This document shows, piece by piece, positions 19,309 to 20,449 of a stretch of DNA of 64,000 nt. The stretch comes from Escherichia coli. Lineage in GTDB: Bacteria > Pseudomonadota > Gammaproteobacteria > Enterobacterales > Enterobacteriaceae. The stretch lies in the NCBI RefSeq assembly GCF_050920415.1, contig NZ_CP169309.1; one strand, 5' to 3'. The notes below the pieces were generated by a model, which saw nothing but the letters and a program-made list of their open reading frames with translations, was not told the origin of the DNA and did not search any database. Both the position numbers and the translations under genes were made by a program. Each line of letters opens with the position of its first letter. Positions within the stretch are counted from its first letter, which is position 1.

Positions 19309-20449
19309 GGCCCTGCACATCCCGTGGCCCCCTGCATGGCTAAAGCATGGAAAGCGGAAGAAAAAGCGCAATGAGGTCGTAGGACGAACGGTTCGGGGAA
19401 GGCTGAAGAGTACGTATCTGGTCCTGAAGACCGGATAAACCTTCATCGGTCCAACGTTTAAGCCACTTGTAGCTAGTGGCAGGAGAAATGCCGTAGTGAC
19501 GGACCCTGTAAATAATTCTGTGTAACTGCCCACGGTTAAAGGTGGCCGCTCAGGCGGTCACCGTATTCGATAATAAATTGTGTGATTCATAGACATCGTT
19601 TCAATTTTCTCAGCTCAAGTTCAAGCTGGTTATTCTGTTCCTGTATATGCTCCTCATTGGGCTGATAGTTTGCATGAACGGCATCAGAGTATGGCGTTTT
19701 CTTAGCAAGTTCAAAGTAGCGCGCCATCGGAGTTATCAGCCACCCACAGCTGGTCAGGATGTTCTGCCATGAACTGACGATTCACACAGTCGCCTGCGGC
19801 AACGACTTTCCTGCTGACTGTAAACAGAACGACGGTCGGCGGTGAAATAACGGTCTTTGCCCTCACCTACGCCATGGCCCAGCGCCCGGCTCATGTCGTA
19901 CATCACGTTAGTAGCCATCGCTTTCACGCGGGCATCCATTGCGGCGTCGTTCAAAACCATACCTCCCCAGCCGCAAATACCGGGTAACCTGATACTTCAA
20001 CAATAAGATTGGTGCGTGGATGATAGATTGCCAAATAATAATCCATCAAGAAATAATGACAACAAAAAACATCAAGCAACCCTAATGTTATTTGGTCATA
20101 TAAAACATTAATAAGTCTTGACCTTTCCTGACATTTTCCTTATTCGCAATAATATTCTGTTTAGACGTTGTTTATAAACATCATGCATAATGAAATCGTC
20201 ATGTTATTTGGCGATATAAAAAAGTCTTTGAAAATACTCTCTACAACAAGTGCAGTTATAAGCTTGTTGTGACTGAGCGTCCTTGTGATTTAAAGATATT
20301 ATCGTTCTTCATCAGATGTAATAACTCAGGAAATTATATTTTCAGGGTGACAGGCTAATCAAGAATGATTCTTTTTTATAAGCAATAACAGAATGACTGA
20401 ATTGTTATATTTCTTTATTCAGCTGCTTAAATATAAACTTTGGAGAATT

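Follow-up and report, generated by a model that had tools for sequence, protein, structure and literature searches.

Which genes, if any, lie behind the short minus-strand open reading frames (ORFs) between an ankyrin-repeat gene and a fimbrial operon in an Escherichia coli chromosome? The window that we analyzed is a 64,000-nucleotide stretch of that chromosome, and the ORFs sit inside a variable interval that has hipBA on one side and the F9/fml (ydeQRS) fimbrial operon on the other. A preliminary description, made from the sequence alone, had read them as fragments that suggest one or more pseudogenised genes, perhaps left by the vehicle that delivered the block or by a lost partner gene. 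The quoted ORFs are present, at 19754 to 19960 (MVLNDAAMDARVKAM...), 19711 to 19866 (...AEHPDQLWVADNSDGALL), and 19587 to 19727 (MARYFELAKKTPYSDAVHANYQPNEEHIQEQNNQLELELRKLKRCL), and the idea of pseudogenised genes is borne out: every quoted peptide has strong homologues. However, the count needs correcting: five different genes are represented, not just one or two that decayed. The minus strand from 19995 to 19364, a fragment-bearing stretch of 632 bp, is a mosaic of remnants of five unrelated genes, four transposases and one hydrolase, all of them dead. We consider it highly probable that the interval is a nonfunctional scrapyard at the edge of a variable island, with the insertion-then-deletion history proposed here. 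A confusing run of short frames is thereby explained as five dead fragments, with little import beyond annotation.

The hipA-fml haplotype

A segment of about 1.2 kb around the fragments aligned from end to end with 17 complete E. coli genomes, at 97.3 to 99.8% identity. The relic interval also lies on one ENA metagenome contig, in a contiguous alignment at about 98%. The carriers of this hipA-fml haplotype number 18 genomes, which provide the sole coverage of positions 19996 to 20066. In the 17 carriers, the gene order runs from the ECSE_1600 autotransporter gene through hipBA, a frameshifted hypothetical gene, an MbcA/ParS/Xre antitoxin gene, and the gene for a 535-aa leucine-rich repeat (LRR) protein to a partial helix-turn-helix (HTH) gene, the ankyrin gene, and three partial pseudogenes. 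A fimA-like fmlA, the chaperone and usher genes, ydeS, ydeR, ydeQ, and ydeP follow. Because of this yde gene order downstream, the fimbrial operon beside the fragments is the F9/fml (yde) operon.

Most E. coli genomes show homology to the window only from position 20067 onward, at about 86 to 91% identity. Between hipA and fmlA they have other genes, in whose place the window has 13311 to 20066. Therefore, the fragments lie at the right-hand edge of the variable interval 13311 to 20066. Two short segments that flank them have no assigned homology. The 55 bp at 19309 to 19363, which separate the ankyrin stop codon from the nearest remnant, had no homologue outside the locus in blastn and tblastn comparisons against the interval. 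The AT-rich 71 bp at 19996 to 20066, which reach from the hydrolase remnant to the start of the common fml upstream homology at 20067, had none beyond the 18 genomes of the same haplotype.

Five truncated genes on the minus strand

The fragment nearest the fml operon (19823 to 19995, minus strand) is an alpha/beta-hydrolase remnant that retains codons 136 to 193 of a 352-codon gene. The N-terminal 135 and the C-terminal ~160 codons are missing. Over codons 136 to 193, it resembles the WP_122987197 family (82% amino acid and 84% nucleotide identity), the window copy being truncated at both ends. A tblastn search with WP_122987197 gave an E value of 2.8e-31 (about 82% amino acid identity over the real part), and blastn gave 84.4% nucleotide identity over exactly 19823 to 19995. 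A complete alpha/beta-hydrolase (DLH/PETase-like) fold with nucleophile, acid, and histidine is absent, only 58 of the 352 codons being left. The stretch GICGWGG probably represents the nucleophile-elbow region. The acid and the histidine of alpha/beta-hydrolases normally lie in the C-terminal part, of which about 160 codons are absent here. The intact WP_122987197 matches the Pfam families PETase-like, Abhydrolase_1, and DLH. Its gene is found between an MFS transporter gene and a LysR regulator gene near paoD in about 930 E. coli genomes, and one intact copy (in L005) adjoins the paoD/ykgR locus.

An exact degenerate pattern containing the window-specific hydrolase residues had no match in 100,044 species genomes. 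A looser pattern found 73 loci in other species, the best at 88% nucleotide identity, and none of these 73 species representatives holds an intact orthologue above 88%. The alignments of the best-matching homologues from the 73 species end at or inside 19823 and 19995, and none extends past these positions. Therefore, both truncations of the hydrolase remnant are real. None of the 73 loci is linked to ankyrin, LRR, or hipA genes; two carry a fimbrial usher, which is only distantly related (31%). This hydrolase, of a housekeeping type, is the sole remnant that does not come from an insertion sequence (IS), and, given its lack of linkage in other species, the suggestion of a lost partner gene is unsupported.

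The adjoining 88 bp (19735 to 19822, minus strand) were identified by blastn as an internal remnant of orfB from an IS3-family element of the IS1203/IS629 type. They encode ...RKVVAAGDCVNRQFMAEHPDQLWVAD, the start of the DDE/integrase domain. Identity is 89.8% to an IS3-family transposase gene (L008) and 89.2% to IS1203 (L010, 1501 to 1583; about nucleotides 644 to 731 of the 1,214-nucleotide orfAB), with an E value of 7.6e-30 for the piece. The entry to the integrase domain, ...RQF.AE.PDQLWVAD..., is conserved with IS1203/IS629 over these 88 bp at 89% identity. However, neither IS end is present in the window. Elements of the IS1203/IS629 group have orfA and orfB joined by a programmed frameshift, and terminal inverted repeats; here there are 88 internal bp only.

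The third fragment (19579 to 19734, minus strand; blastn and tblastn) is the right-hand 156 bp of a 1,019-bp IS481-family element. It contains transposase codons 277 to 323 (19730 to 19590), the stop codon (19589 to 19587), and an intact terminal inverted repeat, TGTGTGATTCATAGACATCGTTTCA, at 19603 to 19579. Position 19579 is the exact terminus of the element. The match to an element of E. coli O111:H11 (L004, 2501 to 3519; transposase WP_001428275) is 95.4% in nucleotides and 91.5% in amino acids (E = 3.7e-28). That element has perfect 25-nucleotide inverted repeats and a 7-bp target duplication, ATTTATG, and it occurs in EHEC O111 and on an EPEC EAF-type plasmid. In comparison, the window keeps 15% of the element and lacks the left end and the catalytic domain; it shows no target duplication, a single end of the element having survived. 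Instead of a complete DDE transposase with an N-terminal HTH and an rve core, there are codons 277 to 323 of 323; the right inverted repeat is identical at 19579 to 19603, and the left one is absent from the window.

The fourth fragment (19502 to 19578, minus strand; blastn E = 1.2e-34) is the last 77 bp of an IS256-family, ISEc39-like element. What it keeps is about 13 codons from the C terminus of the transposase with their stop codon, together with the terminal inverted repeat. These 77 bp are 87% identical to the end of intact ISEc39 (ISEc39/IS1414, IS256 family) and 97.4% identical to another IS256 remnant. The inverted repeat stands at the element boundary, where GACCCTGTAAATAATTCTGTGTAACTGCC aligns to the ISEc39 end; the ISEc39 repeat arms themselves were found in L015 at 2006 to 2030 and 3288 to 3312. 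An intact transposase gene and a second end are both absent, the piece being 77 bp only. Two other identities for it were considered and rejected. It is not the N terminus or left end of the ISEc19-like element described below, since it matches IS256 ends and the protein P0007 has no N-terminal similarity to it. Nor is it a djlA-type terminator, again because its matches are to IS256-family ends.

The last fragment (19364 to 19501, minus strand) comes from an IS481-family transposase that resembles ISEc19/yagA. It covers codons 35 to 80, the HTH region, and the IS256-family end interrupts it at codon 35. A tblastn search with YagA gave 63% amino acid identity over residues 35 to 80 (E = 3.1e-17). 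Nucleotide identity by blastn is 74.8%, which marks the piece as a relative of ISEc19 (yagA of the K-12 CP4-6 prophage) and not ISEc19 itself. Identity to P0007 is 75%, and the window has nothing that corresponds to the first 30 residues of that protein. Of a full-length transposase of about 384 aa, 46 codons are left.

Four of the peptides were run against NCBIfam, and two had no match, including the 49-aa IS481-family fragment; the intact WP_001428275 reached 254.7 bits for transpos_IS481 against a cut-off of 224. The other two matched weakly: the 37-aa IS3 peptide to transpos_IS3 (E = 0.009; 15 bits against a cut-off of 160) and the ISEc19-like peptide to transpos_IS481 (E = 2.9e-6). The 57-aa hydrolase peptide and a 64-aa HTH peptide fall below the length that the word index of the large protein databases can handle, and their only matches there were further short ORF fragments.

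We found no complete domain in any of the five pieces, nor both ends of any IS. To judge from this truncation, the pieces are probably inert relics that yield no working protein and cannot transpose. PGAP labels three of them as partial pseudogenes ("incomplete, partial in the middle of a contig"), calling the hydrolase remnant "alpha/beta hydrolase, incomplete" and the ISEc19-like remnant "helix-turn-helix domain-containing, incomplete." It leaves the IS3-family and IS256-family pieces unannotated. Our additions to the existing annotation are only these two pieces and the nested-insertion reading given below.

The ORFs are all short (46 to 68 aa) and overlap other short ORFs, so that they might be chance open frames in noncoding DNA. 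However, E values of 1e-17 to 1e-31 against intact genes refute this outright (tblastn of intact proteins, 2.8e-31, 3.7e-28, and 3.1e-17; blastn, 7.6e-30 and 1.2e-34), and the absence of homologues, which the preliminary description had named as its own refutation, did not come about. All fragments are also on the same strand and abut one another, as though a single gene, or a single partner of the ankyrin gene in an operon, had decayed by frameshifts. We give this almost no credence, as the homology map already refutes it: the pieces belong to five unrelated families and to nonconsecutive positions (hydrolase codons 136 to 193, the inside of IS3 orfB, IS481 codons 277 to 323, the tip of an IS256 element, and YagA residues 35 to 80), and two of the boundaries are IS termini. 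Alignment to intact homologues, proposed earlier as a way to rebuild the ancestral gene, leads to no single ancestor, because the pieces match different unrelated families. The frame-hopping reflects junctions between unrelated fragments and not frameshifts within a single gene.

Junctions between the fragments

In a mosaic of five genes, the joints carry the history. At two of them, 19578/19579 and 19501/19502, an exact IS terminus is joined to an internal position of another IS. We take 19502 to be the exact outer terminus of the IS256-family element because five unrelated contexts share one starting base of homology to IS256 ends, GACCCTGTAAAT, and the inverted repeat confirms it. The two joints have the form of canonical end-into-target joints, which indicates nested insertions. 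At the remaining junctions, 19822/19823, 19734/19735, and ~19364, internal gene positions are joined to each other, so these would have to be deletion joints. The first links hydrolase codon 193 to IS3 orfB, the second links IS3 orfB to the IS481-family transposase at codon 276/277, and the third is where the HTH remnant ends.

We suggest the following history. At the start, an ISEc19-like element would have stood beside the ankyrin gene, at its 3' end. Codon 35 of the ISEc19-like transposase gene may then have received an IS256-family element, which may in turn have been entered by the 1,019-bp IS481-family element at a point 77 bp inside the IS256 terminus. Farther along would have lain an IS3-family element and the alpha/beta-hydrolase gene. 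Later illegitimate deletions could have removed the upstream halves, including the rest of the IS256-family element displaced by the IS481-family insertion, and left five collinear stumps head to tail on the minus strand. The order ISEc19-like, then IS256-family, then IS481-family is suggested by nesting logic, since IS termini are joined to internal IS positions. No intermediate with longer remnants was found.

The IS256-family piece has a near twin. A 77-bp stump upstream of yjhR in K-12 (L006, 2501 to 2577), present in more than 2,400 genomes, is 98.7% identical to it and breaks off at exactly the same base inside IS256; both outer flanks differ, and the outer flank of the K-12 stump, tested for ISEc19-like sequence, is not ISEc19-like. 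The proposed history explains the cut at 77 bp in the window by the IS481-family insertion and leaves the identical K-12 cut unexplained. It is possible that the site is a hot spot for the IS481-family element, which was then lost from K-12, or that the two stumps share a composite ancestor. Repeated insertion of the IS481-family element after ...GATAATAAAT in IS256-type elements would account for the yjhR stump. A third stump of the same kind, a 60-bp IS256 end with 90% identity, directly follows the djlA stop codon in L009 (1501 to 1560), next to the effector gene espY1.

Scars of this type are familiar from K-12. Upstream of yjhR in KpLE2 and at yagA in CP4-6, ISs were nested and then truncated by deletion as here, and they survive as short collinear stumps annotated as partial transposase pseudogenes, as in the window. 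The feature is therefore ordinary and its kind already known, a textbook IS scrapyard of the sort common in variable E. coli regions. What is specific to the rare hipA-fml haplotype is the combination of four IS pieces and a hydrolase within 632 bp.

Conservation and continuing decay

The junctions are identical in the three genomes aligned, including the window, which come from different sub-lineages. Together with the presence of the interval on the metagenome contig, where the ankyrin protein is 86% identical, this implies that the mosaic predates the spread of the haplotype. The mosaic would thus have been fixed before the carrier lineages split. Three-way distances are star-like, and the tree is unrooted.

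Small and large deletions appear still to be eroding the region. In one sub-lineage, the hydrolase stump has lost a further 13 bp, which shifts its frame. Strain 2013C-4282 has lost 638 bp (18732 to 19369) between CAAT microhomologies, which truncates its ankyrin gene. Strain N96 has lost 5.6 kb (14204 to ~19825), a stretch that includes both the LRR and ankyrin genes along with the four IS remnants. These strain-specific deletions show ongoing decay. In this rare haplotype, several IS elements have landed between hipA and fml, and deletions are now making the interval shorter.

The N96 joint was also considered as an empty site with a 5-bp duplication, in which case 14204 to 19821 would be an inserted block with the IS remnants at its end. 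In N96 (L002, 9001 to 9006), a truncated Xre gene runs straight into the hydrolase stump, with an imperfect microhomology, AAAAAG/AAACAG, at the joint. However, window positions 13951 to 14331 are 94% identical to L013 (5690 to 6069), and native Xre sequence continues across 14204, the left breakpoint. Because of this continuity and of the imperfect repeat within an A run, the empty site was rejected, and the gap is best read as a secondary microhomology deletion. Its right breakpoint and the IS3/hydrolase junction are no more than about 4 bp apart, which we treat as coincidence.

Could any of the pieces have been co-opted, the 58-aa HTH ORF as a small regulator or the IS ends as a promoter or terminator for the ankyrin gene or fml? 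Protein calls for the HTH ORF exist on 273 contigs, and the ORF matches HTH Pfam families, but it lacks the first 34 residues of its family and requires a noncanonical ATT start. The interval is about 99% conserved among carriers, yet this is no more than in its flanks, since carrier divergence is about 1% in both. Promoter-like (sigma-70-like) sites between 19200 and 20460 number 9 against 2.3 expected; however, most lie beyond 20020, in the AT-rich fml upstream DNA. Rfam at a permissive threshold found no RNA family in 19000 to 20600, and no convincing terminator was found. The 13-bp deletion in one sub-lineage and the loss of parts of the region from two strains also argue against a function. 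We therefore regard co-option as very improbable and keep to the reading of the pieces as dead relics.

Origin of the neighboring ankyrin and LRR genes

The relic interval adjoins the gene for a 654-aa ankyrin-repeat protein (17344 to 19308, plus strand). This gene occurs at this locus only, in 16 to 17 of 5,426 complete E. coli genomes and on the one metagenome contig. The contig, with its 86% identical ankyrin protein, proved to be the same locus, its relic interval aligning at about 98%. The protein varies among carriers, being 602 aa long in L014 through a difference in repeat number and truncated in 2013C-4282 by the 638-bp deletion.

The LRR gene (15044 to 16651, minus strand) encodes an N-terminal region followed by 20-residue leucine-rich repeats like those of the type III effectors SspH2 and SlrP. 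The protein matches NCBIfam PRK15387 (E = 1e-58), with profile positions covered only to 438 of 788 and the NEL ligase domain uncovered. Its length is 460 to 535 aa across strains, and one PGAP record names it "NEL-type E3 ubiquitin ligase domain-containing." Between 16420 and 16500 there is a 9-bp tandem repeat, (SKT)n. The ankyrin and LRR proteins form a pair of eukaryote-like, effector-type gene products.

An Xre-type HTH gene on the minus strand is split into a C-terminal part (14076 to 14331) and an N-terminal part (16896 to 17041). The two parts share a 69-bp duplicated overlap (14263 to 14331 and 16896 to 16964, 91% identical). The LRR gene sits in the 2.56 kb between them. Many E. coli genomes have an intact 110-aa homologue (L013, 5814 to 6146).

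The preliminary description had also raised the possibility that the fragments are what is left of a delivery vehicle. If so, at least one IS remnant would be the last trace of a mobile element that brought in the ankyrin gene, the LRR block, or both, and the ISEc19-like remnant, as the oldest and the immediate neighbor of the ankyrin gene, would be the likeliest candidate. The remnants do begin within 56 bp of the ankyrin stop codon, the gene is rare, the whole of 13311 to 20066 substitutes for a different gene set of most E. coli, and N96 is without 14204 to ~19825. However, a composite transposon or IS-bounded island has an IS at both ends of its cargo, and here IS remnants are on the fml side only. 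The other side of the block has the split Xre and antitoxin genes, with no IS remnant or inverted repeat, and no partner IS end was found across the ankyrin/LRR block. A target-site duplication is likewise absent, and N96 does not supply the empty site: its gap cuts a continuous Xre gene at an A-rich microhomology, as expected of a secondary deletion. The cargo is known from this locus only, in E. coli and the one metagenome contig, and the ankyrin gene stands beside no intact IS. Finally, a stack of nested insertions from four different IS families is the signature of IS build-up in dispensable DNA, a process that the stacking pattern fits. A vehicle is thus improbable, and the relics give no usable clue to the origin of the ankyrin and LRR genes.

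One speculative combination may still be stated, although we think it quite unlikely. The ISEc19-like stump could be the trace of the importer of the LRR and ankyrin pair beside F9, and, separately, the 77-bp stump shared with K-12 could reflect a site preference of the IS481-family element inside IS256-type elements. The reading that we prefer remains accumulation of ISs in dispensable DNA followed by deletion.

The fml side and a further IS

To the right of the relics, the AT-rich segment 20020 to 20362 upstream of fmlA holds most of the nine sigma-70-like sites and is probably the fml regulatory region. The fml/F9 operon itself (20067 to ~27000) is a divergent allele: measured per 500 bp, it is about 83 to 94% identical to the one common in E. 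coli, and inside ydeP the figure climbs back to about 95 to 97%. On the other side of the ankyrin gene, strain MFDS1022581 carries an extra IS2, absent from the window, at a site that corresponds to window positions 14728 to 14733 (L001, 6150 to 7478). The alignments on its two sides overlap by 5 to 6 bp, which is consistent with a target duplication.
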